64,000 nt of DNA from Escherichia phage UPEC06: the sequence record MW250786. The stretch is one strand, 5' to 3'. Both the position numbers and the translations under genes were made by a program. Below, one piece after another: positions 1 to 11,642 of this stretch; the stretch's first letter is position 1; every line of letters begins with the position of its first letter. A model generated the notes under the pieces. It worked only from the letters and a program-made list of their open reading frames with translations, had not been told where the DNA came from and did not search any database.

Positions 1-1075
1 GACAAAACTCTCTTCTCTCTTCTCTCCCCAAATAAATTTTTTCTTGCTTTTATTGCCAGAGTATGGCGGGGCGCTCAGGCTATTGATGGCCCTGATGGAG
101 TCGCTCCTGCACAGTTGGGATAGTTCATCGTTGGATAGTCACAAGTTGGTATTATTCTTCCCACTAGTTGGAACAGGCCAGAACTGGCGGGGCTTGGAGT
201 CGCTCCACTTGTTGGGCGGAAGAAGGGCGCTTGCAGTGCGTATAAGTTGTATTATGTTAAATGCAGATCGAAATCGGTATTCTAAATCAGATTCAGAAGT
301 CAATAGAAATCTTTAACTTTATTGTTGGGGTAGCACAACATTTTTCTTGACAAGTCGAATCAAAGATGTATTGCGGATTGAAAATAAATGAAGATAATGC
401 TTGACTTCTTGGATATTTTGAAAACATCGGACCCCCTCTCCCTCCCCCACGGTCGCCGTGCCTGGCAGCAGTGCCAACGCACTAAACAAAAAAGATGCAA
501 ACATCCTTTGCTTTCTTGCTGACGAAGAACAAGGTCAACAGACAACAGACAAGGCTGGTTAGACTGGTTAGACTGGTTAGCCTCTTCAGGCCATCACCTT
601 TGGGCACAGATATATTTGGGCAGGATAAATAATGGACCCACCCCATAAGAGGTGACTCAAAATTTTGGCGGGAGGGTAAAATAACTAAAAAGATGGCCCT
701 TGTGCTGTGGGTCGTCCTCTACGGGATAGCCTCGATAGGCTCTCTGTGGTTTACATTGTGGGATATACTGACACCACAGGTGTTACTATAGGTGTTACTC
801 CGTGGCAAGAACTAATGTTACTCTGTGGACAATCGGAGTGCCTCGATAGGCAGAATTGACTTGACTCTGTGGGGCAAAGTGGGGGTGTCTCAGTAGGCCA
901 ACAGTGGTTACTCTTTAGGCAAACTACCTAATTTTGGGAGAAACTGATATTTGTGGGAATCGTTGTACGACATTTGGGCATTATTGTAGGTGGAGTACAA
1001 CAGTTTGGAAGGACGATATAGTTTGGTGGGCACAACATTTTGGGATGAGCAGAGGAGTTTGGTTGCAATCCAGAT
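1..1075. repeat. ORF-poor, repeat-rich non-coding region (polypyrimidine tract at 12-30, C-rich tract at 431-447, dispersed ctctgtgg / gttact / cctcgatagg / ttttggg motifs)
   Basis: Read directly: no long ORF with an RBS; composition differs from the coding block; several short motifs recur. Confidence 0.5.
536..581. repeat. Short tandem repeats: caacaga x2 followed by ctggttaga x3 (third copy ctggttagc)
   Basis: Exact tandem units read directly from the sequence. Confidence 0.8.
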
Positions 1076-1102
1076 GCAAAAAGCACCCACTTTTGGGGTG
1101 CT
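1076..1102 (-). terminator. Putative intrinsic terminator downstream of the minus-strand gene ending at 1118
   Basis: Hairpin agcaccc/ggggtgct with an A-run on the plus strand (U-run on the minus transcript). Confidence 0.4.
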
Positions 1103-1117
1103 CTCTGTAGTTCAGGA

Positions 1118-1516
1118 TCAGACAGCCAGTCGTCTGAGGGCATACGTTGGATTGTCAATGTCAAATAGATTGACAAGCTTAACAATTCTGTAGCTCTGGG
1201 CTTTTACTGACTTGTATTGAGATTTATCTTTGTCCTCTGAAAGAATAATAGACTCAATGCCATTGTCGTAGGCGTACTCAAGGTAGCTCTGAGTAAACCC
1301 AAGGGCATCTGCATCCTTCTTGGCTATTTCGTAGACAAATTGCGCCTCTGTTCCGTCATAAATTACCTTCTTGTCTTTCGGTTCTATATAGACTCTACGT
1401 ACAGAGCCAGAACCAATCTTCTGCTCTTGTTCTTTACGCCTTTCGGCCTCTTCTGCCAAAGATTTCCGTGTACCATTCCAACGATGTGCGATTTTACTTA
1501 CCATTCCGGCCTCCAA
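1118..1516 (-). CDS. hypothetical protein
   Basis: 132-aa ORF at the end of the co-directional minus-strand block; no recognisable motif. Confidence 0.5.
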   Translation of the reverse strand: MEAGMVSKIAHRWNGTRKSLAEEAERRKEQEQKIGSGSVRRVYIEPKDKKVIYDGTEAQFVYEIAKKDADALGFTQSYLEYAYDNGIESIILSEDKDKSQYKSVKAQSYRIVKLVNLFDIDNPTYALRRLAV

Positions 1517-1734
1517 GTGATATCAACTTTAATTTCTACCTGTGCCAGCACGAAAGGGCGGTCATCACCACTGAAGTTATGTCGCCAATCCGTCTCTCGA
1601 ATGTCCAGATAGTCTTTACTCTTAACGTCGTAGAACGTAAACGTGCCTGACTTCCTGTACACTTCGTCATTAGGGCCGTCCACATGACCAAAGTATGCAC
1701 CCCTTTTAATTTCTTGAAAGTTATAATTCGCCAT
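1498..1734 (-). CDS. hypothetical protein
   Basis: 78-aa ORF in the co-directional block. Confidence 0.45.
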   Translation of the reverse strand: MANYNFQEIKRGAYFGHVDGPNDEVYRKSGTFTFYDVKSKDYLDIRETDWRHNFSGDDRPFVLAQVEIKVDITWRPEW

Positions 1735-1745
1735 ATTAATCCTTA

Positions 1746-1940
1746 TCAGTAGTATTCATATTCATCACCCATGTACCAAGTGTCGTACCCTTGGTTGTAG
1801 GTATATGATTTAGTTGGTGTTTTCTTTGTCTGATCTTTAGAGAACAATGCCGTGCCGTCCTTAAGGAATCCAGTAGCTTCCTCTCCTTTCAGTACGACAC
1901 GACCTTTCTTTTTCCACTCTTCAAATGTACGGTATACCAT
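1746..1940 (-). CDS. hypothetical protein
   Basis: ATG at 1940 preceded by a GGGAGAG RBS; start adjusted from the ORF-track 1994. Confidence 0.5.
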   Translation of the reverse strand: MVYRTFEEWKKKGRVVLKGEEATGFLKDGTALFSKDQTKKTPTKSYTYNQGYDTWYMGDEYEYY

Positions 1941-1941
1941 A

Positions 1942-2151
1942 TCACTTCTCTCCCTTCTCCGCTTCGTCTGCTGCGGCGATAAGTGCTGCCGCAAGCTTAC
2001 GTGCTGCCTCGGGTGTGTAGTACATTAATGTATTTCCTTCTTCATATTCGTCTGGATTGAAGTCTACTGAGATGAGGTTGCCGATCCCAGACTTCTTGAT
2101 GCTAACCTCGGTTTCGTCGAAATCAACGTCTTCAATGCGTACAGTTTTCAT
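1942..2151 (-). CDS. hypothetical protein
   Basis: 69-aa ORF abutting the downstream gene. Confidence 0.45.
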   Translation of the reverse strand: MKTVRIEDVDFDETEVSIKKSGIGNLISVDFNPDEYEEGNTLMYYTPEAARKLAAALIAAADEAEKGEK

Positions 2152-2182
2152 AGTAATTTCCTCTTTATTGTCGATAGGGTAA

Positions 2183-2503
2183 TTATGATTTAAACCCTGA
2201 CGTTAAGTGTTCGCCAAGTGCCCCACTTACCCACAATCTGCAGATGTTGTGCTCTTTGCGTAGCTCTTTCCCGTAAACTACATCACCGTGATTGAACTCG
2301 GCGAAGGTGTAGTAATCCACATCCAGATACCAGATTCGGATAGTCATACCTTTCTCCCAAGCACGGTTCATCAGAGTCATCTGGTAAGTGTGTACATCAT
2401 CCAGACCTTCCTTAAAAATCAGGTAGTTAGAGTAACCGAACGACCCGTGGACGTTAAATCGCAGCGGTGCACAAGTAGGGTGAAAGTTTACAATTTTAGT
2501 CAT
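2183..2503 (-). CDS. hypothetical protein
   Basis: 106-aa ORF in the co-directional block. Confidence 0.5.
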   Translation of the reverse strand: MTKIVNFHPTCAPLRFNVHGSFGYSNYLIFKEGLDDVHTYQMTLMNRAWEKGMTIRIWYLDVDYYTFAEFNHGDVVYGKELRKEHNICRLWVSGALGEHLTSGFKS

Positions 2504-2697
2504 TATTTACTCCTTGGTAAGTCACAATCTAAAAGGTCAATCAAACCTACAGCGTCGAGGTGTCCGGTGATGATATGTTCCTCTTCCTTAAGGCACTTCC
2601 TGCAAACACGTATTGCACGGGTCTTCGGGACTGATCGCTCGCTGTACTGACTCCAATAGGTGAGTACCCAGTCCTTCTTTATGTCAGTGTGATTCAT
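2503..2697 (-). CDS. hypothetical protein
   Basis: 64-aa ORF in the co-directional block. Confidence 0.4.
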   Translation of the reverse strand: MNHTDIKKDWVLTYWSQYSERSVPKTRAIRVCRKCLKEEEHIITGHLDAVGLIDLLDCDLPRSK

Positions 2698-2779
2698 CGT
2701 CCTTTCTCCATAATGTCCACCATAATCATGGAGAACGCCAGTATCAGTAGTGGTAGCGCGATCACTACCCCTGCGGTCA

Positions 2780-2926
2780 TCATAATTGCTCCAGAGCCGA
2801 CAGTACGGCGACGAATGCGAGTAACACTAAGATAATGCCCCAGGTCAAGTAATAATACCAATTAGGCCATAAAAGGTAGTCACAATTCTCCCAAAGGGCG
2901 TTCGGGTTGTCTTTATTTCCAGTCAT
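2780..2926 (-). CDS. small membrane protein (single predicted TM helix)
   Basis: Internal ATG at 2926; hydrophobic segment ILVLLAFVAVLSAL. Confidence 0.3.
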   Translation of the reverse strand: MTGNKDNPNALWENCDYLLWPNWYYYLTWGIILVLLAFVAVLSALEQL

Positions 2927-3197
2927 AGAAGTCCACTGGCTTAGGATCACCGAGGTAATCTGTGCAATAAGTACGGAATGAGGTCTTTGCATCTTCCAGA
3001 GTAAACCCTGCTGGCATAGCGAGGCTTGCCTCATCCCAAAAGATGTACTCTACGTGACCATCACCGTAGATCACTTCTTCGATGGTTGCCAGATTAGTAG
3101 CCTTCATCTCAAATTCTCCTCGATTATACTCCGCATGGAACTTAGATGGACAGAAAAATTGATTATCTAACATACCCGCACGACGTTTCTTTTCCAT
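2913..3197 (-). CDS. hypothetical protein
   Basis: 94-aa ORF in the co-directional block. Confidence 0.5.
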   Translation of the reverse strand: MEKKRRAGMLDNQFFCPSKFHAEYNRGEFEMKATNLATIEEVIYGDGHVEYIFWDEASLAMPAGFTLEDAKTSFRTYCTDYLGDPKPVDFYDWK

Positions 3198-3206
3198 TAT
3201 AGCCCC

Positions 3207-3674
3207 TTACTTTTTACTAATGATTAATTTTTGAATGTTTTCAACGGCTTGGTCGAAAGGAATTTCATATTCTTCGATCAATGCCAGAAGTTTTGCTTTT
3301 GCTTCTTGATTGCGCTCTTCTTGCACTTCTTTAAGAAGCTCGCCATACTTATCTTTCAGCATTTGCTCCGAGATATCATAGGCTTCTGCCAGAATAGCAT
3401 CGATTTTGTCGTCGAGTTCTAAACATTCCGGCGTTGCAGTCTTTCCACTTGCCCAGCAAGCACCCATATAGCCATCAATACCGACGATGAAATCATTCCA
3501 GTTAGTGTAGTAACTTACCCCCTTAGAGATATCATAATCTTGAGCCAAGGCTTCTTTGAACATCTCATCTGCAAGCTTCTGGATCAGTTCTTTACGATCA
3601 GGGGTGCAGAAAGCAAAGAAATAGCTGGATGTATGTTCAGGAAATTCACGACGATAGACTGTTAAGCTGTACAT
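3207..3674 (-). CDS. hypothetical protein
   Basis: 155-aa ORF in the co-directional block. Confidence 0.55.
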   Translation of the reverse strand: MYSLTVYRREFPEHTSSYFFAFCTPDRKELIQKLADEMFKEALAQDYDISKGVSYYTNWNDFIVGIDGYMGACWASGKTATPECLELDDKIDAILAEAYDISEQMLKDKYGELLKEVQEERNQEAKAKLLALIEEYEIPFDQAVENIQKLIISKK

Positions 3675-3709
3675 TTTGTTCTCCTCTTTGATTTGATATG
3701 CTCAGTATA

Positions 3710-3874
3710 TTAGTTTCCGGTGTACTCTGCAACCTTTTCTTGCAATTCTGAGTGAATTTTTGCCAGTTTCTGCATTTTGTCCCTGTCCCAAGGCTTCTTC
3801 TCAAAGTCAGAAACAGTATTTGCGTAAGTCTCGATCATTGCCATCAGGTCGTAGTATTTTTCTTGTGGTGTCAT
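3710..3874 (-). CDS. hypothetical protein
   Basis: ATG at 3874 with an AGGAG RBS 6 nt upstream; start adjusted. Confidence 0.5.
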   Translation of the reverse strand: MTPQEKYYDLMAMIETYANTVSDFEKKPWDRDKMQKLAKIHSELQEKVAEYTGN

Positions 3875-4043
3875 GTTAGTCTCCTGTTTAGTTGATGAAC
3901 TTAATGTACAGGACAAAAGGGGAGAATGCAAGAACTTTTTAAAGCCTCTTAGAAGGCTTCTCACGAGGTTATTTAAGTAGGGTATACATTCGGGTAGGTT
4001 AGTCAGTTTAGGTCGTTACAGTGCACCCTGTGAAGCGGTAGGC

Positions 4044-4070
4044 AATAAAAAACCGCCCGAAGGCGGTTTG
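4044..4070 (-). terminator. Intrinsic terminator (aaccgcc-cgaa-ggcggtt hairpin plus U-run on the minus transcript)
   Basis: Perfect 7-bp stem with tetraloop and flanking A-run on the plus strand, directly downstream of the gene ending at 4085. Confidence 0.7.
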
Positions 4071-4084
4071 TATTTATCGAATTG

Positions 4085-5227
4085 TTATTCCGGCAATTCC
4101 AGAACAGAGAAAGTCAGAACCTGTGTCGTTCCGTAGCCAGGCAACAACTGTGTTGCCTGTGCACCCTGACCAACACCGTACAGAACCCCTCTGTCCAAGT
4201 AGTAGTTTATAGAATATTCAGACTTTATTGAAGAATACTCCCCACCGTAAGGTACAACAGGATCTAGGGCCGTAAACACCGCATAAGTAGGTTGGAAAGT
4301 AGTCCCTACACCTTGCAAGTTCCCTGTTCCTTGTCCTGTAAAATATATTCTGCCGTTAGGGTGTTCAACACGGGCAGAGTAATGGCTGATATATATCTTA
4401 GGTCTTGAAGGCATATTGGAGAGTACCAGTGTTGGTGAGAGAATTGACACGTTCGCGGTACTATTGGTCCCTAAACTTTTGTTAGTGTCCCTCCCCTGAG
4501 CATAGATATGATATGCCCCACTTGCCTCCACAATCCTGAAAAATCCATAGGTTGTTGCAACTATATCAACCACTGTTCCACTTACGTTACTCTGCCTCAT
4601 CCACGTTGTAGAGTTAGTCGTCGTTCCATTCTGACCGTAAGCAGACTCTCCTGCTACATAAACTTCCCCTGTTTTAGTCAGAAGGTAGGACGTATCATAA
4701 GTTGCCCAATCAAGATCTATTTTTTCAACATTCTTAAAATCCGTCCTCAATGTCAGAGTTCTCACAACAGCAGTAGTCCCAACACCTAATCCACCCCTGT
4801 TATTAGTCCCGCACATTGCATACTGCCCATCTTCGAATACAACGGCAACGTTACGATAACTCATGACCACTTGTTTAATAGAGAGTCCAGCAGGGATAGG
4901 CATATCCACTGTAACATCCGTCAGGGTATTTAGTGTTGTACCAAAGCCAGTGTTAAAATACTGGTTAAACCCCATAAACAACCACCTATCTGCGGTTGTC
5001 CTTGCAAGAACAGAAGCCGATGCAGTCCACACATCTGCAATATTTGTTGCCAAGTACCTCCAAGTGTTCACAGTGGAACTCGTACCACTGAAATATTGGC
5101 TACCACGACCATAAAGATTACCAGACTTCATAAGAACAACGATACCCGACTGTCCGGCAGCGAATTTCTTAACTTTACCCTCTACCTCGGGTAGTTCACC
5201 AATGCCTAAGTTCATCATTTCTAACAT
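4085..5227 (-). CDS. RCC1-like repeat (predicted beta-propeller) protein, paralog A
   Basis: Starts MLEMMNLG; recurring G-x-h-Y-x-x-G-x-x-x-G-x-G repeats; AAGGA RBS before the ATG at 5227. Confidence 0.65.
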   Translation of the reverse strand: MLEMMNLGIGELPEVEGKVKKFAAGQSGIVVLMKSGNLYGRGSQYFSGTSSTVNTWRYLATNIADVWTASASVLARTTADRWLFMGFNQYFNTGFGTTLNTLTDVTVDMPIPAGLSIKQVVMSYRNVAVVFEDGQYAMCGTNNRGGLGVGTTAVVRTLTLRTDFKNVEKIDLDWATYDTSYLLTKTGEVYVAGESAYGQNGTTTNSTTWMRQSNVSGTVVDIVATTYGFFRIVEASGAYHIYAQGRDTNKSLGTNSTANVSILSPTLVLSNMPSRPKIYISHYSARVEHPNGRIYFTGQGTGNLQGVGTTFQPTYAVFTALDPVVPYGGEYSSIKSEYSINYYLDRGVLYGVGQGAQATQLLPGYGTTQVLTFSVLELPE

Positions 5228-5236
5228 AATTTTTCC

Positions 5237-6370
5237 TTATTCAAGTCCAGTAAGGTCCAGTGGTACATAGGTTGTCTGGTCTGTTGTGTATCCAGGTAAT
5301 TTACCTGTAGAAGCGCCACCAGATCCATACAAAATTCCATCTTCTGCCAGAACGTAAGTGTTTGTATAATTACCTCTTTGAAATATTTGACCCCATAACG
5401 GACTTGCTGTAGTGGTTATTCTAGTAATACCGTAGTACGTCTGAGTTCCCAATCCCCAGCCTGTCCCCTCAGTCCTCCCCGTAATACCGATATTGTTATT
5501 TATTCTCCTCACAAGACCTTGGGCGAGAGGGTAAAACCCGTAAGCGGGTGAATAAACACTGCTTGTGACTACAGATATGTCAGTTACAGTTGCAACAGTA
5601 GATGCTGCACCTAATGACCCAGATGCGTTGCTACCTAAGCCAAGTATCAATTCATCCCTGTCTGTGCGTGAGCCTGAAATATACACGCACTCATATCCAG
5701 TCTTTAATGCAAGTGGTGCTGAGTTTATTGGGTTTGGTATTCTAACAAAAGAGGTCCTTTGGCCTGTCCCGTTGGAAGAAGAAAACTTAGAGTAAGCCCC
5801 GTTTCCACATCCGTATACATCACCCCCACTTATAATCCAGGTAGTAACTGAAGTATCCAATATTGCAACATCTTTAATACCCAACGAAGTATTGGGTGGT
5901 TCAACATAAGTTAAATTCGGGACTGAAGTATTGGAACCTAAGCCTAAATGGGGGCCTGATCCCGCAACTGCCAGAGTATTATCTGTATAAAGGAAAGCGA
6001 TCGCATTAGCACCCATTTCTATTTTTCTTATCGGCTTATTGATTGCCATTACCTTAGCCGTTACGTCAACGGGCGTATTCTCTACTCTAGGTACGAAGAA
6101 GTTATACCCTGTAATAAACCACGATCCCCCTTTTGTTTTGAACAAGAGCGAAGCTTGCCCAGCCCAGAAGTCATCTACACCAGATGAAACCAACGTCCAT
6201 TCTCTCGTAGTAGCACCTATGCCAGATAAGTTTGCATTTGTAGGTGATATCGAGTACAGATTCCCAGCTTCACTAAGCAAGTGAATACTTTCACTTGCTG
6301 TGATATCGAACTTTTTCAACTTAAATGGGACCTTACCTGCCGCGCCGGATAAATTTAACATCTCTAACAT
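5237..6370 (-). CDS. RCC1-like repeat (predicted beta-propeller) protein, paralog B
   Basis: Internal ATG at 6370 gives MLEMLNLSG; GGAGAA RBS; same repeat architecture as its neighbours. Confidence 0.65.
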   Translation of the reverse strand: MLEMLNLSGAAGKVPFKLKKFDITASESIHLLSEAGNLYSISPTNANLSGIGATTREWTLVSSGVDDFWAGQASLLFKTKGGSWFITGYNFFVPRVENTPVDVTAKVMAINKPIRKIEMGANAIAFLYTDNTLAVAGSGPHLGLGSNTSVPNLTYVEPPNTSLGIKDVAILDTSVTTWIISGGDVYGCGNGAYSKFSSSNGTGQRTSFVRIPNPINSAPLALKTGYECVYISGSRTDRDELILGLGSNASGSLGAASTVATVTDISVVTSSVYSPAYGFYPLAQGLVRRINNNIGITGRTEGTGWGLGTQTYYGITRITTTASPLWGQIFQRGNYTNTYVLAEDGILYGSGGASTGKLPGYTTDQTTYVPLDLTGLE

Positions 6371-6383
6371 TTTATTCTCCTTA

Positions 6384-7583
6384 TTAGTACCAAGGCATAC
6401 TAGCCATGAGGCGCATAGGTGTAACACTGGTCCCTCCATCAGGGAGTGTCCATCCACTTGCTGTTCTACCACCTGCGGCAAACAATTGATAATCTTCAGT
6501 TAAGATAAATGATCGTACATAATCTTTAGCCACCCCAATAACCTTTTTATCTCCGAAGGTTGCAGGTTTGTACATATCCACATAGTTATATACCGATGTA
6601 TAACTTACACCATCACCCACTTGACCTGATCCGTTTTCACCACCGTTTTTGATAGTGTTTCTCCCGAAACAAATGATCGGAGCACCCGTTGCATCACCTG
6701 TTTGGATACCTGATGGATATAATAAATCACCCTCCGGTAAGTTTCCACTCAAGGCATCGTTTTTTATAGGTCGCAGGACCGTTCCTGCGTTGTTAAATGA
6801 ACCCGTTCCCGCAGAACCTTGAGTATTCAAACCGCTCCAATACACGTCTCCATTTTGCATTATTCTCCAAGTACATACCGTAGCAACAATTATGTTTTTA
6901 ACACCCGAAGTAACCAATGTTGGAGTTTGTAAGTGACTGTTAAGAGCACCTAGACCACTTTCCCCGTAAGCATCGTACCCTGCAAAGAATTCCCTGCCAT
7001 CTTCAGTTAAGAAATGAGTACCGAAAGCCCTTGTAGCCAATTGAGATATAGGCCCCATACTGGTGATCTGGACAAAGTTTGCAATCATATTTCTTGTACC
7101 ATTCCCACACTCACCATTAGAGTTAAGACCACAGCAGAAAACACGACCATCTTTTGTCAGAAGCCTACAAGATCCGCTGCCGAGCGCCAGAGTTTTTATA
7201 TCATCAGGTGTCACACCAATATTGTTAAAATGTACTGTAACTTCAGTAAAGTAAGCAACGTTACCACCACCTGTCCCCAGTGGTGGAAATGCGTTCCTGA
7301 TCCCAGCATAATAGAATTTATCATCGTTTGTTGCAACAAGTGTACTAGCCTGACCTAACCAGAAATATTTACAGTTTGAATAGATAGGTTTAAAGCTCGG
7401 TACTTCTGTTGGAATACCGTCCCCGAATCGGTATACAGGTGCATTACCATACCCGTAAAGATTGCCAGTTGGCCTGTGAAGATACATAACCACAGATTGT
7501 TGCGCCTGAATAAATTCAGGTGAGATCTCACTATCAATTGGAGGCAAAGAGGCTACAGCTCCTAAGTTCAACATCTCTAACAT
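6384..7583 (-). CDS. RCC1-like repeat (predicted beta-propeller) protein, paralog C
   Basis: ATG at 7583 gives MLEMLNLGA; GGAGAA RBS; repeats such as GRVFCCGLNSNGECGNG. Confidence 0.65.
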   Translation of the reverse strand: MLEMLNLGAVASLPPIDSEISPEFIQAQQSVVMYLHRPTGNLYGYGNAPVYRFGDGIPTEVPSFKPIYSNCKYFWLGQASTLVATNDDKFYYAGIRNAFPPLGTGGGNVAYFTEVTVHFNNIGVTPDDIKTLALGSGSCRLLTKDGRVFCCGLNSNGECGNGTRNMIANFVQITSMGPISQLATRAFGTHFLTEDGREFFAGYDAYGESGLGALNSHLQTPTLVTSGVKNIIVATVCTWRIMQNGDVYWSGLNTQGSAGTGSFNNAGTVLRPIKNDALSGNLPEGDLLYPSGIQTGDATGAPIICFGRNTIKNGGENGSGQVGDGVSYTSVYNYVDMYKPATFGDKKVIGVAKDYVRSFILTEDYQLFAAGGRTASGWTLPDGGTSVTPMRLMASMPWY

Positions 7584-7660
7584 ACTTAATTCTCCTGTTG
7601 TTTTGGAATACCACAAAGAACCCCATAAAGAGGTTCCTTGATTTCATTATCTACTTTACT

Positions 7661-7666
7661 ATTATA
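7661..7666 (-). promoter_or_regulatory. Possible -10 element (TATAAT on the minus strand) upstream of the RCC1-like gene cluster
   Basis: Exact TATAAT hexamer on the minus strand in the 168-bp intergenic gap; no good -35 found. Confidence 0.25.
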
Positions 7667-7751
7667 CCTGTTTTTCCTTACAAAGTCCAAAAAGGAGCGA
7701 GACTTACTTTCAGGCGCTGTAGACACATACCCTTGTTTTTCTTCACTATTT

Positions 7752-7958
7752 TCAAATTTCAACGATACCCTCCGTGAAAAACAATTTCATAAAGTCCTCT
7801 TCCCAAAACACCATTGCTCCAGAGTGGGTATCAACAACGAAAGTTCTACGTGGGTCACGATAAGTGTTACCAAAGTGAAACTCAAATCGATCACCTTTCT
7901 TGTGCTGCCCGAAATCCTGTTTTAATTCACAAAATTGAACCTGCTCTGAAGAAATCAT
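7752..7958 (-). CDS. hypothetical protein
   Basis: 68-aa ORF. Confidence 0.45.
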   Translation of the reverse strand: MISSEQVQFCELKQDFGQHKKGDRFEFHFGNTYRDPRRTFVVDTHSGAMVFWEEDFMKLFFTEGIVEI

Positions 7959-7968
7959 GTTTTGCCCC

Positions 7969-8196
7969 TTATTCTCTGTAACCTAGGATCTTTACCAGTT
8001 TGTCGGATTTATCTTTTACCCTGCTGTAATAGTATTCAGTCTGAGATTTACTATCACACTTTGTCATTGTGTACCAAAAGAAAAAACCTATCCGTTTTTG
8101 CAAGGCATAAGTAACCTTTTTGCCTGCATGTGTATGATTATATTCAATTAGTACGATTCTGTATCTATTCACAAATCTATTCATGAACTTAAACAT
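7969..8196 (-). CDS. hypothetical protein
   Basis: 75-aa ORF. Confidence 0.45.
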   Translation of the reverse strand: MFKFMNRFVNRYRIVLIEYNHTHAGKKVTYALQKRIGFFFWYTMTKCDSKSQTEYYYSRVKDKSDKLVKILGYRE

Positions 8197-8203
8197 GACT
8201 GCA

Positions 8204-8311
8204 TCACAGCAAGACTAGGACGATGAATGTCGCAATAACCATCACAGCAATCTCAGTTTTGGTAAAGGTAACTTTGTTGGTTGCAGGTACGTTGTTTTTC
8301 CAAATGCTCAT
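8204..8311 (-). CDS. small membrane protein (35 aa), below the ORF-track length cutoff
   Basis: ATG at 8311 with a GAGGAGA RBS; hydrophobic C-terminus IAVMVIATFIVLVLL. Confidence 0.35.
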   Translation of the reverse strand: MSIWKNNVPATNKVTFTKTEIAVMVIATFIVLVLL

Positions 8312-8522
8312 AAATTTCTCCTCGTTTAGTAAATACCTAAGATGAACTCATCGCCACGAAAAACTCCCAGGCTACTTGATTCATTCCACACACCAAAATT
8401 ACCAGTCAGTTCAGAGTCTTCGTAGCTGTAAAGCATCTCGTCTTCTTGATCTTCATAATGCCCGTTACGAATGATGTTGTCAATTACTTTCGTTAAATTT
8501 TTAATTTTATTCTCCTTAGTTA

Positions 8523-8861
8523 TTATAATTCTTCAGCATTTTCCACAGCATGAGCCAGTTCACTCAAGAAATCTTTCAAGCCAATGGTGTACGATTCAAC
8601 AAGGGCCTCTGCAATTTGGCTCTTAAACTTCGAATCGGCTAACTCTTCCATCCGGCTATGTACGCTGATGTTCGTAATCAGAAACTTAACGATATAGCTC
8701 GCCTTGTAGAGCAAAGGGAAGTAATCTTCTACCATGTTTTCAATACGGAAGTATTTTTCTGCGTTGTATTCCCACATAAAAACAGTCGTCAGTTCTTTGG
8801 CAAGTTCATGGTCTTTTTTAGCCATTGCAATCAGATGTTCTATCTCTGCTTGTTCAACCAT
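8523..8861 (-). CDS. hypothetical protein
   Basis: 112-aa ORF. Confidence 0.5.
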   Translation of the reverse strand: MVEQAEIEHLIAMAKKDHELAKELTTVFMWEYNAEKYFRIENMVEDYFPLLYKASYIVKFLITNISVHSRMEELADSKFKSQIAEALVESYTIGLKDFLSELAHAVENAEEL

Positions 8862-9073
8862 TAAATGACCTCCTCTTTAAGAATCTCACGATGACCTGCG
8901 CCGTACCATCCTTTCATCGTATTAACTACACCAACAGCCTCGCCGTATGTTTCAAATTTCGATTCTTCATGTGGGCCAATACGGACAGTTACCCAAAACA
9001 AGTTAAATACTTTACGATGAACTTCATAATGCGTTGATTCACCTTTCCGAACTTTAACGATCCGAACTTTCAT
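8861..9073 (-). CDS. hypothetical protein
   Basis: ATG at 9073 with a GGAGGG RBS; start adjusted. Confidence 0.5.
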   Translation of the reverse strand: MKVRIVKVRKGESTHYEVHRKVFNLFWVTVRIGPHEESKFETYGEAVGVVNTMKGWYGAGHREILKEEVI

Positions 9074-9269
9074 TATACCACCCTCCAAAAGTCATAAATG
9101 CTTGATCAACCATATCTTTCCACTCAGGGTAGAGAGCACAAATCATGATGTAGACCTCTTCATCAATGTCTTCACACTCCTCCATTTCCAAATACTCTAC
9201 CACAGGTATGGGCAGAAGGCAATTTATTTCTTTACCCCTGAATTTCAGACCCTTAACTAATTTTAGCAT
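9054..9269 (-). CDS. hypothetical protein
   Basis: ATG at 9269 with an AAGGA RBS. Confidence 0.5.
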   Translation of the reverse strand: MLKLVKGLKFRGKEINCLLPIPVVEYLEMEECEDIDEEVYIMICALYPEWKDMVDQAFMTFGGWYNESSDR

Positions 9270-9270
9270 A

Positions 9271-9510
9271 TCAATCCTTAATCACGTAGAATCCTGATTC
9301 GTTCATCAGGACAAAGGACTTGCCGAAGAAATCCTTACGATTATCCAAAACAAGGTAGAATCTTCGCTCAGACGAGAGGTGATGTGGGTCAGCCATATAG
9401 CTTACCCTCGCCGTCATGCCCTTATTCTTTCCTCTTGTGATCCTTACCCTTGTACCATTCTCATATTTAATATCCACCGAACCTCCATCGCAACTCTTTA
9501 TGAATCTCAT
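9271..9510 (-). CDS. hypothetical protein
   Basis: 79-aa ORF. Confidence 0.45.
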   Translation of the reverse strand: MRFIKSCDGGSVDIKYENGTRVRITRGKNKGMTARVSYMADPHHLSSERRFYLVLDNRKDFFGKSFVLMNESGFYVIKD

Positions 9511-9970
9511 CCAACCCTGGTTTCAGTTTTGGAAGATCTCTTATAAACTCAGGATAGAGGACATTAACGAAGTCAATCTCATCATCTGTGGGTTTTTGAA
9601 TATCTTCGAAATACTCGTCAAGATTGAATATCTGCCAATCCTTACACCCTGCCTTTCGGACACCCATGAAGATTTCATTGTTACAGGTGGCCATCCAGGA
9701 GATCCTAGATCCTTTACCATTCGCATTCGGCAATGTTGAAACACAGAAGCGTGGTACTTCCCGAACCTTAAAATCCTTGTCATAGTATCCGCGACCACGT
9801 TGAAATTTAAACTTGGTCTTTCCCACTCTTTGACTAATCTTCATGTCACGGCGAAAGCTGTGGTCAGAGGTATAGATGAGTTGACGAAGATACTGAGTAT
9901 GTCTGATCTTTTTCCAATTCCAATCTCGAATGAGTATTTCATAGACTTCCTTAAATGCTTCATACGCCAT
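9467..9970 (-). CDS. hypothetical protein
   Basis: Internal ATG at 9970 avoids overlap with the upstream gene. Confidence 0.5.
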   Translation of the reverse strand: MAYEAFKEVYEILIRDWNWKKIRHTQYLRQLIYTSDHSFRRDMKISQRVGKTKFKFQRGRGYYDKDFKVREVPRFCVSTLPNANGKGSRISWMATCNNEIFMGVRKAGCKDWQIFNLDEYFEDIQKPTDDEIDFVNVLYPEFIRDLPKLKPGLDEIHKELRWRFGGY

Positions 9971-10199
9971 CGGGGGATTCCTTATCGAGAGCACCAACAA
10001 TCTCAAACTTTGCTACGCCAAGGACAACCACATGACCTAGGGATTGTACGCCTGTCCACGGAGTACCATTCTTCTTAGATCGCTTACCAACCACATCGCA
10101 GAAATCATTCCGAAGTTCTGTTGCATCAAACAATTCACCTTTTGGAAAAACTTCTTTAAAATCAGCAATCACGTTCAGACATTTCAGTTTCATATTCAA
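9960..10199 (-). CDS. hypothetical protein
   Basis: 79-aa ORF. Confidence 0.45.
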   Translation of the reverse strand: MNMKLKCLNVIADFKEVFPKGELFDATELRNDFCDVVGKRSKKNGTPWTGVQSLGHVVVLGVAKFEIVGALDKESPDGV

Positions 10200-10536
10200 A
10201 CACCCCTCTCTCTAATCTTTGTTTGGCAAGTAACTCCCTCTGTGCTCTAAGCGGCATCCTGAAAAATATTACAACATTCTCCAAATCCGCTGCCCGTTTT
10301 TTAAGCCCTTTGGTAAATTTACCTTCCCGCTTAATTGCATCGTAGATACCTCTGTACTCCTCTTCGACAGAGTTATCTTCAAATATCCGGTTAGCGATCA
10401 TACTGTCGATCTCCATCCCGAGAGCTTCAAAGCCGTACCAGTCTACATGTTCTTCTGTAACGGGACCTCTCTCCTTGTACACTTGTCCCGTAACTTCGTT
10501 AATTACAATCGTCGTCATTTTCGTACCTTCTTGCAT
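10162..10536 (-). CDS. hypothetical protein (paralog of the adjacent gene; shared FFRMP motif)
   Basis: C-terminal FFRMPLRAQ and an MEIDSM..FEDNSVEEE segment resemble the neighbour. Confidence 0.5.
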   Translation of the reverse strand: MQEGTKMTTIVINEVTGQVYKERGPVTEEHVDWYGFEALGMEIDSMIANRIFEDNSVEEEYRGIYDAIKREGKFTKGLKKRAADLENVVIFFRMPLRAQRELLAKQRLERGVFEYETEMSERDC

Positions 10537-10813
10537 TATACGGCATCCTGAAGAAGTTTAGAAGGTTGTAGATAGCAGCAACCCTCTCTTTTATCTTTTC
10601 GTCTAAGAAGATATCAGGTCCCTTGCTACAAAGTTCAAAATCTATATCTTCCCACTCATCAACCACAGATCCGTCTTCAAAAACTCCCTTTTCATACATC
10701 ATCCTGATCTCCATCTCCATCCCCTTGAATATTGAAAAAGTAACATCCTCAGGATGAAGGTACTGCACGTTATCTATAAACAATCCCCTACGTGGGTATA
10801 TGACCATGTGCAA
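10499..10813 (-). CDS. hypothetical protein (paralog of the adjacent gene; shared FFRMP motif)
   Basis: C-terminal FFRMPYNAR and an MEIRMM..FEDGSVVDE segment. Confidence 0.5.
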   Translation of the reverse strand: MHMVIYPRRGLFIDNVQYLHPEDVTFSIFKGMEMEIRMMYEKGVFEDGSVVDEWEDIDFELCSKGPDIFLDEKIKERVAAIYNLLNFFRMPYNARRYENDDDCN

Positions 10814-10931
10814 AATAATCCTCCTATGTTCAATATAAGCCCCACAGAAGCGATTTTGACGAGGTTTTCTTAAGAGAATGATAAATCACCTTACCTCGTC
10901 GTAGACCTCGTTAGAATCGTTCTGAGGGCGT

Positions 10932-11186
10932 TTAAATCATGCCTAGCAAATTCATCTCTTTTAACAACCCTTCTTTAGTAGAGTTGAACAGAACTGGCTT
11001 ACCTTCTTCTGGCTCATTGAAGAAGATTTCATGAGTCTCATTATCTATCTTCTCCATCTCTTTTACTACTTCCCCTGACAAAAAGATATCACTACCTTTT
11101 AAACCAGGAAACATCAAAAGAATTGCGGTTTTCGCATCTGTTGCCCAACCCTGACCACCATCTAGACTGAATATCTTAATCATCAT
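10932..11186 (-). CDS. hypothetical protein
   Basis: Internal ATG at 11186 with a GGAGG RBS. Confidence 0.45.
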   Translation of the reverse strand: MMIKIFSLDGGQGWATDAKTAILLMFPGLKGSDIFLSGEVVKEMEKIDNETHEIFFNEPEEGKPVLFNSTKEGLLKEMNLLGMI

Positions 11187-11484
11187 TTTCCTCCAAATTA
11201 GCCAGTGCAGTTCTGACTTCAAGAAGAGTTGCCGACCTTGACTCGTTTCTTTCTGAGAAATCACGAATCATCATCTTGTACTTCATTTCTTCTTCAGCAC
11301 GGAGAATCTTCTGTTCGATCAACTTGTAAACTTTGCCCGCTCTTTCTGGAAACAACGCTGCAAAGAGATTCCAGTCTTCCAATCGACCTTCGTAAGACTC
11401 TCCAGAGGTAAAGTACCGATCTCTTTCGATGCTGTCAACAAAATAATAACCGAATTCACCATAACGCCAAGTTTCATTTTTCAT
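11176..11484 (-). CDS. hypothetical protein (paralog of 11646-11885)
   Basis: Shared motif ERDRYFTSGESYEGRLEDW versus ERDREEYFTSQTTEGRAEDW. Confidence 0.5.
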   Translation of the reverse strand: MKNETWRYGEFGYYFVDSIERDRYFTSGESYEGRLEDWNLFAALFPERAGKVYKLIEQKILRAEEEMKYKMMIRDFSERNESRSATLLEVRTALANLEENDD

Positions 11485-11642
11485 TTGATGTACCGAGCAG
11501 CAGCCGTACCGATAAGGAAGCCAGCAGGAACTGCGACAATAATAGCTTCAATCATTTTGAGATCTGCTGCAACACATGCTGCACCAACAACAACAGAACC
11601 CGCCCAGATAGCAATTACACGTTTCAAAAATTTGGTATTCAT
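11481..11642 (-). CDS. small membrane protein (53 aa), below the ORF-track length cutoff
   Basis: ATG at 11642 with a GGAGA RBS; hydrophobic segments; ATGA overlap with the downstream start. Confidence 0.4.
   Translation of the reverse strand: MNTKFLKRVIAIWAGSVVVGAACVAADLKMIEAIIVAVPAGFLIGTAAARYIK

Follow-up and report, generated by a model that had tools for sequence, protein, structure and literature searches.

Direct terminal repeats (DTRs) placed in zones free of open reading frames (ORFs) are already known from the phage subfamily Vequintavirinae. In the Mydovirus KPP-1 (MT438396), a 514-bp DTR was located at 116,316-116,829 by twofold coverage and PhageTerm (PMC9862379), and this interval falls inside the ORF-poor convergent zone of the genome. 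The GenBank records of DP and KP12 agree with a fixed 514-bp DTR as in KPP-1: DP (OP296941) carries a repeat_region at 1-514 and again at 145,135-145,648, and KP12 (OM835951) starts at base 1 of the 514-bp repeat. Published packaging modes conflict within the subfamily, as PhiTE and PVP-SE1 were described from restriction-based work as terminally redundant and circularly permuted (PMC3475682), and headful packaging was suggested by PhageTerm for the Vequintavirus BpE1AUH (PMC13211470). For rV5 (NC_011041), a “non-coding” box was drawn and left unexplained in the genome paper of Kropinski et al. 2013 (PMC3606486). This box corresponds to 104,014-106,617, a 2.6-kb interval with plus-strand gp158 on one side, minus-strand gp159 on the other, and nothing annotated in between. 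Here, we analyzed the gene-poor left edge, bases 1-1117, of a 64,000-nt window of Escherichia phage UPEC06 (MW250786), an rV5-like E. coli phage of the genus Septuagintavirus; “the window” refers to that whole stretch. Our reading is that bases 1 to ~450-485 are probably the left copy of a DTR at the left physical end of the virion chromosome, with adjoining repeat arrays and a terminator completing 1-1117.

We searched the region against the phage collection with megablast and with sensitive blastn, and both returned the identical five records: A73, W70, A5-4, A7_1, and vB_EcoM-LTH01, at ~87-95% identity. All five belong to Septuagintavirus in the Vequintavirinae (PMC11370258), and the neighboring 8 kb gave the same match pattern. 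The zone is internal and syntenic in these genomes, lying between converging plus-strand and minus-strand blocks, and no blastn match to the region was obtained in 5,426 complete E. coli genomes. The suggestion in the original prediction that it might be non-phage flanking DNA is thereby refuted.

The first base of the window carries much of the argument. Direct alignment places it opposite base 1 of the DP record, at which the DP repeat_region 1-514 starts. It also aligns with the DTR boundary of KPP-1, as GCTA^GACAAAACTCTC against GCTA^AACACAATTCTC of KPP-1 (the caret marks the boundary). The terminus context is GCTA^GACAAAACTCTCTTCTC in the relatives and GCTA^AACACAATTCTCTCTCC in its KPP-1/DP counterpart, and the predicted left terminus reads GCTA^GACAAAAC. 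A CT-rich stretch follows the boundary in other genera as well, with GCTA^AACAC(A/G)ATTCTCTCTCC in KPP-1/DP and GTCA^GACAAGTTTTTCCCCTC in Vequintavirus. Further inside, the KPP-1/DP DTR contains AGTGCGTATAACGTGTTTTATGTTAAATG, which matches window 235-263 at 26 of 29 bases (E 4.5e-5) with relative orientation kept, and GATATTTTGTAAAGATC, which matches window 412-428 at 15 of 17 bases (E 0.89, weak alone). The two matches occur in the same order and at similar spacing in the KPP-1/DP DTR. Bases 1 to ~470 are thus homologous to, and collinear with, the documented 514-bp terminal repeat of Mydovirus, which supports the terminal-repeat or packaging role that the original prediction had listed among several options. 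Furthermore, the large terminase (TerL) belongs to the same lineage as that of DP, at 68% identity and 81% similarity over 485 aa (full length). The gene layout is also as in DP, with minus-strand genes following the left repeat and plus-strand genes preceding the right repeat.

Next, we computed pairwise identity among six complete relatives along the region, with the following profile:

~170 nt left of base 1: identity 0.65-0.70
25-473: identity 0.86-0.97
474-523: identity 0.64
524 to ~857: identity 0.28-0.74
908-1007: identity 0.90-0.94

Bases 25-473 are therefore conserved as a unit, with sharp drops to variable DNA on both sides. The right edge of this unit is less exact than the left. 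DP base 514 aligns near window 450, conservation collapses at 474, and a foreign segment in W70 starts at ~472. A second boundary-like sequence lies slightly further on and may be an alternative right boundary of the DTR, judging from its letters. The predicted element and this sequence are:

1-470, no strand assigned: predicted left copy of the DTR, with its left boundary at base 1 and an uncertain right boundary at 450-485
480-491, plus strand: CACTA^AACAAAA, a direct repeat of the left-boundary GCTA^GACAAAA, in a context present in all relatives

The layout that we consider probable is a DTR (1 to ~450-485), variable arrays (485-905), conserved ~20-bp TTTGG repeats (908-1062), and then a terminator.

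Two of the relatives carry insertions close to the predicted boundaries. In A73 (OP778609), a 104-nt insertion at 6072-6175, corresponding to about window 17-70, consists of 50 nt found in no other compared sequence plus a second copy of the preceding ~54 nt. It sits exactly where the gene numbering wraps (A73_1/A73_264), so it is probably an untrimmed overlap of contig ends. The original contig junction of A73, with its duplication, is no more than 70 nt from the predicted chromosome end, and we counted it in favor of that end. In W70 (OP778610), a 483-nt ORF at 6573-7055, about window 472-690, replaces variable DNA just outside the predicted DTR. By-eye reading of the alignment, without a domain search, gives it an HNH-endonuclease-like signature (...IDHINGDRLDNSPPNLREV...), and it looks like a free-standing homing endonuclease gene placed in non-coding DNA.

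Several observations weigh against a chromosome end at base 1. The original prediction had proposed a dot-plot, and no duplicate of the region turned up: no second copy of 1 to ~470 occurs within the 64-kb window (no shared k-mer of at least 13), which covers one end. The five GenBank relatives and one 12.7-kb contig of Logan, a set of assemblies made from public sequence reads, carry the region once, internally, as would be expected for collapsed circular assemblies. Only the boundary and a few short stretches resemble the Mydovirus DTR; the rest is unalignable. A 20,158-nt Logan contig (SRR16019202) matches window 116-11504 at 100% identity and breaks off at base 116, which neither a repeat in the window nor the DTR model explains. 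Homopolymer-run heterogeneity or a chromosome-end effect is possible there. We also took base 1 of the window to be the first base of the source record, which is an assumption. Finally, there are the published descriptions of PhiTE, PVP-SE1, and BpE1AUH given above.

That literature makes a pac site the main rival to a DTR. The zone would then belong to a headful phage with terminally redundant, partly circularly permuted DNA and no fixed short DTR, and the conserved block would be the region of terminase recognition and first cut. PhiTE is also a generalized transducer (PMC3475682), and the assemblies of W70, A5-4, and A7_1 start outside the zone. The conserved stretches and repeat arrays would fit a pac site as well as a DTR. 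The agreement of three Mydovirus records on a discrete 514-bp repeat with identical boundaries argues the other way, as do the exact coincidence of window base 1 with that boundary and the close relationship of TerL to DP TerL. Known pac sites are usually in or beside the small terminase gene, and this zone is ~54 kb from TerL. We therefore regard a pac site as unlikely.

The preferred reading, a chromosome end with a DTR, treats the region as non-coding DNA that probably acts in cis and not as a gene. As had been predicted, there is no convincing gene in the first ~1.1 kb, since 1-1117 holds only short overlapping ORFs and no conserved reading frame. In A73 and A5-4, 1-nt indels disrupt the longest ORF, 44..316 (90 aa, TTG start). 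Of the 480 sites in 1-480, 64 (13%) are variable in a comparison of seven sequences; they are split over the codon phases as 20/23/21, and indels of 1, 11, and 104 nt occur in the same interval. Four neighboring genes served as a positive control; their third codon positions vary at 0.29-0.65 and their other positions at 0.05-0.33. With no conserved frame, no codon-phase signal, and frameshifting indels, a hidden gene was ruled out. The original prediction had named two outcomes that would overturn it, and neither appeared: homology revealed no conserved protein-coding gene, and the complete E. coli genomes gave no host match. It had also remarked on a composition unlike that of the coding block, and indeed GC content is 0.452 and GC skew is +0.106, versus negative skew over the adjoining 49 kb of minus-strand genes.

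The conserved parts are nevertheless under constraint, as 1-473 and 908-1062 are conserved as well as the first and second codon positions of the neighboring genes. Scans with Rfam 15 over window 1-1500 and over the complete zones of two relatives returned nothing at E up to 1, ARAGORN predicted no tRNA within the zone, and RNA-folding z scores were unremarkable over 1-1000 on both strands. Because there is neither a codon-phase signal nor an Rfam or folding signal, the constraint on these parts acts on the DNA itself; they do not encode protein and are not obviously structured RNA.

These results bear directly on the idea that one or several non-coding RNAs, such as an anti-defense RNA of the PhiTE pseudo-ToxI type, are encoded in the conserved blocks. 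PhiTE, in the same subfamily, does encode a repeat-based antitoxin mimic in an intergenic region (PMC3475682), and a promoter-like site at 347-374 and varying tandem-repeat copy number would suit such an RNA. The lack of any Rfam match or folding signal on either strand counts against it, and the tandem units here are 7 and 9 nt, versus ~34-36 nt for ToxI-like repeats. We rejected a link to the PhiTE locus itself, which lies beside tRNAs and the terminase and not in this zone. Of the alternatives that we weighed, an RNA is the one we find hardly likely at all.

One structured-looking element lies outside the window. At 5671-5775 in A73, ~230-330 bp to the left of where the window begins, two or three small hairpins are enclosed by a perfect inverted repeat of 16 bp (GACACTATAAAACGAG...CTCGTTTTATAGTGTC). 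The element is 97-100% conserved, and one inner hairpin differs between A5-4, LTH01, and the other relatives with pairing kept (by eye). RNAalifold counts no covariation for the element, and the fold has a z score of -1.08. Given both results, we make no RNA claim for this element, and it too speaks against an RNA function of the zone.

The gene-free stretch is ~1.75 kb in all relatives, of which ~620 bp lies to the left of window base 1. Its left border in the relatives is the terminator of a block of small plus-strand genes, and its right border is the terminator at 1077-1107. Within the window, the ORF-free zone extends to 1117; it does lie just past the last minus-strand gene and its terminator, as the original prediction said, but it does not end at 1075. 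The bordering features in the window are:

1077-1107, minus strand: intrinsic terminator of the last minus-strand gene, with stem AGCACCC/GGGTGCT followed by a T run
1118-1504, minus strand: last minus-strand gene (128 aa), which bounds the zone; third-codon-position excess of variable sites 0.34 vs 0.09-0.13

The terminator hairpin folds at -20.2 kcal/mol with a z score of -3.5 (down to -4.0 in sliding windows), and its stem is invariant in 9 sequences. The product of 1118-1504 has no Pfam or PHROG match. Since terminators bound the zone on both sides, two transcription units converge on it.

Convergence invites a simpler explanation, in which the zone is a buffer between two transcription units with little sequence-specific function and its repeats are debris of slippage. 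Besides the flanking terminators, this would account for the unremarkable folding scores and for the indels, changes in repeat copy number, and insertion of a homing endonuclease. Judged from strand composition, RNA entering from either side is C/A-rich, and in this reading it would be unstructured, like Rho loading sites. A buffer would not be expected to keep 1-473 and 908-1062 as conserved as first and second codon positions, or to hold a 14-mer that is invariant across two genera with otherwise unalignable zones. It also leaves the match to a documented DTR and the sharp block boundaries without explanation. We consider it very improbable.

A chromosome end, as we prefer, would contain both the conserved blocks and the repeats. 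The features inside the predicted DTR are:

8-29, plus strand: 22-nt pyrimidine run just inside the predicted terminus; a CT-rich stretch also lies past the boundary in KPP-1/DP and Vequintavirus
52-75, plus strand: motif ATTGCCAGAGTATGGCGGGGCGC, which in relatives is repeated directly ~430 bp further left, beyond the window edge
113-215, plus strand: five GTTGG-type repeats, with a sixth at 324
235-263, plus strand: AGTGCGTATAAGTTGTATTATGTTAAATG, a short stretch common to three genera and a candidate cis recognition element
240-430, no strand assigned: conserved AT-rich core, which holds the promoter-like site and the 9-bp inverted repeat
295-303 and 401-409: 9-bp inverted repeat TTGACTTCT
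347-374: sigma-70-like promoter-like site, TTGACA-16-TATTGC in the window and TATTGT in relatives (10/12 match)
411-430, plus strand: GGATATTTTGAAAACATCGG, shared with the Mydovirus DTR near the far boundary of that DTR
432-448, plus strand: C-rich tract, C5TCTC3TC5 in the window and C5TC5TC5 in relatives, with a similar run in the rV5 zone

The features to the right of it are:

485-905, no strand assigned: variable stretch beside the DTR with tandem repeats and 16-18-nt repeats; identity 0.28-0.78, many indels
724-925: 16-18-nt repeats nnACTCnnTRGGCAA at a spacing of 21-24 bp
908-1062, plus strand: conserved TTTGG/TTTGTGG array of ~seven repeats at a spacing of 17-31 bp

All 13 Septuagintavirus and Vequintavirus loci compared have the 14-mer GTATTATGTTAAAT (249-262) without a change, and it is unique in the window. 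It sits in a conserved stretch of ~35 nt that nhmmer matches to the rV5 zone with an E value of 0.0017. The core 14-mer of the motif at 52-75 is likewise unique within the window. We considered whether such motifs could be a class of promoter and rejected this, as TTGCCAGAGTATGG and GTATTATGTTAAAT do not recur within the 64 kb. The 13-mer TGATATTTGTGGG (945-957) is also present in the rV5 zone with relative orientation kept. Motifs of the form GATAT(A)TTT occur three times in the zone, all on the plus strand (412, 609, and 946) with none on the minus strand, compared with 10 elsewhere in the window (125.8 kb); the motif is found in the KPP-1 and rV5 zones too, again with relative orientation kept. 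The conserved 22-23-mers of the zone gave no match in IMG/VR or metagenome contigs, and the flank protein of the zone gave none in IMG/VR.

The short sequence features named in the original prediction were all found. The polypyrimidine run is pure pyrimidine over 8-29, and the C-rich tract occupies 432-448. Tandem Repeats Finder reported CAACAGA x2.4 at 536-552 and CTGGTTAGA x2.9 at 555-580. The dispersed repeats comprise two copies of CCTCGATAGG (~730 and 841), three of CTCTGTGG (742, 821, and 865), and four of GTTACT (781, 794, 817, and 907). TTTGG-type repeats are present too, although we counted 10 copies and not five. We derived expected counts from k-mer frequencies in the rest of the window, against which the short motifs are 6- to 28-fold over-represented: TTTGGG occurs 6 times vs 0.28 expected, CTGTGG 4 vs 0.25, GTTACT 4 vs 0.37, and TTTGG 10 vs 1.65. 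GTTGG has 6 plus-strand and 2 minus-strand copies, with 1.2 expected. Strand bias is strong, at 10:1 for TTTGG and 9:1 for TTGGG. The orientation of the G/T-rich motifs flips at ~30-80, with reverse complements (e.g., CCCACAAAG) dominating to the left and forward forms to the right. Repeat numbers also differ between phages. CTGGTTAGA is present in 3 copies in the window, 2 in A73, A5-4, and SRR13235684, and none in the remaining relatives, and the 908-1062 array has one extra ~20-nt unit in four relatives.

The region has repeats spaced 17-24 bp apart beside an AT-rich core, and it might be mainly a replication origin of the iteron type. In that case, the iterons would bind a phage initiator, the AT-rich DNA at 240-430 would unwind, and the host-type promoter would prime synthesis, as in the T7 primary origin and T4 R-loop origins. 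The 16-18-nt repeats at 21-24 bp spacing, the ~20-bp TTTGG repeats, the switch of repeat polarity near base 30-80, and the conserved AT-rich core with TTGACA-16-TATTGT in all relatives would all fit. The rV5 zone has its own array of ~10 ACTGTTYAC copies with a ~15-bp period, and the polymerase of rV5-like phages is T7-like and their primase-helicase gp4-like (PMC3606486). Set against these are the lack of an initiator gene or recognizable DNA-binding protein beside the zone, the lack of good DnaA boxes (sequence read by eye), and the presence of only two GATC sites. The repeat arrays are the least conserved part of the region, and the promoter-like site in the window is weakened relative to that of the relatives by a -10 element without the final T. 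The rV5 authors could not locate the origin from skew (PMC3606486). Resemblances to Tus/Ter, DnaA, IHF, sigma-54, and T4 MotA-box sites were weighed by eye and dropped as poor matches. An origin as the main function is very improbable in our view. A replication role as such, which the original prediction had also raised, is possible; it is compatible with, and may coexist with, a chromosome end, and nothing specific supports it.

If the region is a chromosome end, a T7-type packaging analogy suggests how it may work. The DTR sequence would recur at the right end of the virion DNA. In the replicating concatemer, the repeat would be present once, between two repeat-rich arms. Terminase would recognize conserved elements in or around the repeat, for which the candidates are 235-263, the GATATTT and TTTGG arrays, and the boundaries GCTA^GACAAAA and CACTA^AACAAAA. 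It would then cut at both boundaries, and DNA synthesis would duplicate the repeat to place it at both ends of each packaged genome. The stretch at 485-905 may be tolerated or accessory DNA, with repeat units that gain and lose copies and, in one relative, a homing endonuclease that appears to have landed there. More speculatively, cuts on opposite strands would fit with the repeat families being oppositely oriented on either side and with the GCTA...TAGC arrangement flanking the KPP-1 repeat.

A bolder extension is that all rV5-like phages (Vequintavirinae), including rV5 and the phages reported as permuted, package from fixed ends in the “non-coding box.” We hold this to be possible but would not expect it. 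If it is true, 235-263 and the oppositely oriented arrays around a ~0.5-kb repeat would be an undescribed shared terminase recognition module, which might double as a replication start.

The rest of the window has nucleotide-metabolism genes on the minus strand and, from ~50 kb, tRNAs, the large terminase, and portal genes on the plus strand. Two gene groups near the zone stand out. Window 2226-2670 (~445 bp) is absent from all five GenBank relatives, with DNA on either side aligning at 95-100%, and it carries most of two small minus-strand ORFs, 2183..2503 (phrog_18542) and 2503..2697 (phrog_13426). From these alignments, it looks like a small accessory-gene insertion specific to UPEC06. Window 4085-7616 contains three tandem paralogous genes for RCC1/WD40-like repeat proteins, whose best matches outside Septuagintavirus (~35% identity) are in PBECO4/121Q-type jumbo phages and not in other Vequintavirinae.

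On the other side of the zone, A73_3 (A73 4664-5083) adjoins it on the left and encodes a 139-aa homolog of rV5 gp159 that has no function assigned. Nucleotide identity of this gene is 83-88% across Septuagintavirus, Vequintavirus, and a third lineage, whose adjoining zones are unalignable with one another; such strong conservation beside a predicted chromosome end is unusual. In the third lineage (Logan SRR29952123, 4421-6027), the gp159-like gene precedes an ORF-free zone of 1.6 kb, which is unrelated in sequence and has many CCAAC repeats. The genes beyond that zone are on the plus strand, so the gene blocks are not convergent. Two further third-lineage contigs end ~635-672 nt past the gp159-like gene, within the ORF-free zone.

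The feature is most likely an ordinary, though little-described, one in rV5-like phages. New here are the reading of the Septuagintavirus zone as a chromosome end, which by extension covers the rV5 box, and a conserved stretch common to three genera that is a possible recognition element. This offers a concrete explanation for a box that has gone unexplained since the rV5 genome paper. It also points to the true chromosome ends of Septuagintavirus genomes; the records of the five relatives were opened at other positions, at the large terminase gene according to their own paper. Ends and packaging mode matter for genome orientation and comparison and for phage engineering. They also bear on the transduction risk of therapeutic phages, as little generalized transduction is implied by fixed ends that carry a terminal repeat.

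The repeat_region features of phages pangalan and nomo were set aside, as they are 34-bp items and not terminal repeats. The phi92-like phage BME3 (PP239276, Stephanstirmvirinae) has a 342-bp DTR within a ~3-kb ORF-free zone, and this DTR shows weak similarity to window 312-418 (62% over 109 nt, E 0.004). However, BME3 belongs to another subfamily, the genes on both sides of its zone are on the same strand, and the boundaries are unalignable.

In T7, according to Dunn and Studier in 1983 and later T7/T3 packaging work, the concatemer junction is reportedly a terminal repeat flanked by short-repeat arrays. The junction is processed by terminase with duplication of the repeat. The predicted UPEC06 end resembles it in having a short terminal repeat with short-repeat families on both sides, and possibly in its proposed way of working. 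Unlike T7, the UPEC06 repeat is ~three times longer, and there is no similarity in sequence or terminase beyond the general class. T7 early genes are also transcribed inwards from the left end, whereas the genes flanking the UPEC06 zone are transcribed towards the ends.

The rV5 box and the Septuagintavirus zone are positional homologs, because the gp159 homolog flanks both. Each has this gene on one side and the end of the nucleotide-metabolism block on the other, and they have GTATTATGTTAAAT, TGATATTTGTGGG, and a C5TC5-type run in common with relative orientation kept, as well as short-repeat arrays. The rV5 box differs in being 2.6 kb vs 1.75 kb and otherwise unalignable, with no termini reported, and in its main array of ACTGTTYAC repeats. 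In the rV5 sequence (L011, 10485-10640), the ~ten copies of this array lie just outside the homology-predicted DTR boundary, which would be CTTGTC^TGAC at about NC_011041 105,431-105,432. The heptamer in this array may resemble the TGTTCACC sites bound by the P4 alpha protein.

Among the closest described counterparts is the Mydovirus DTR of KPP-1, DP, and KP12. The differences are that most of the sequence between conserved stretches is unalignable, that the non-coding stretch from repeat to first gene is ~630 bp in UPEC06 vs ~380 bp, with different repeat families, and that the presence of the repeat at both ends is a prediction for UPEC06. The likenesses extend from an ORF-free convergent zone, the first base (GCTA^RAC...CTCTC), and ordered conserved stretches to size (514 bp vs a predicted 450-485 bp), the minus-strand genes after the left copy, and a TerL that is 68% identical.

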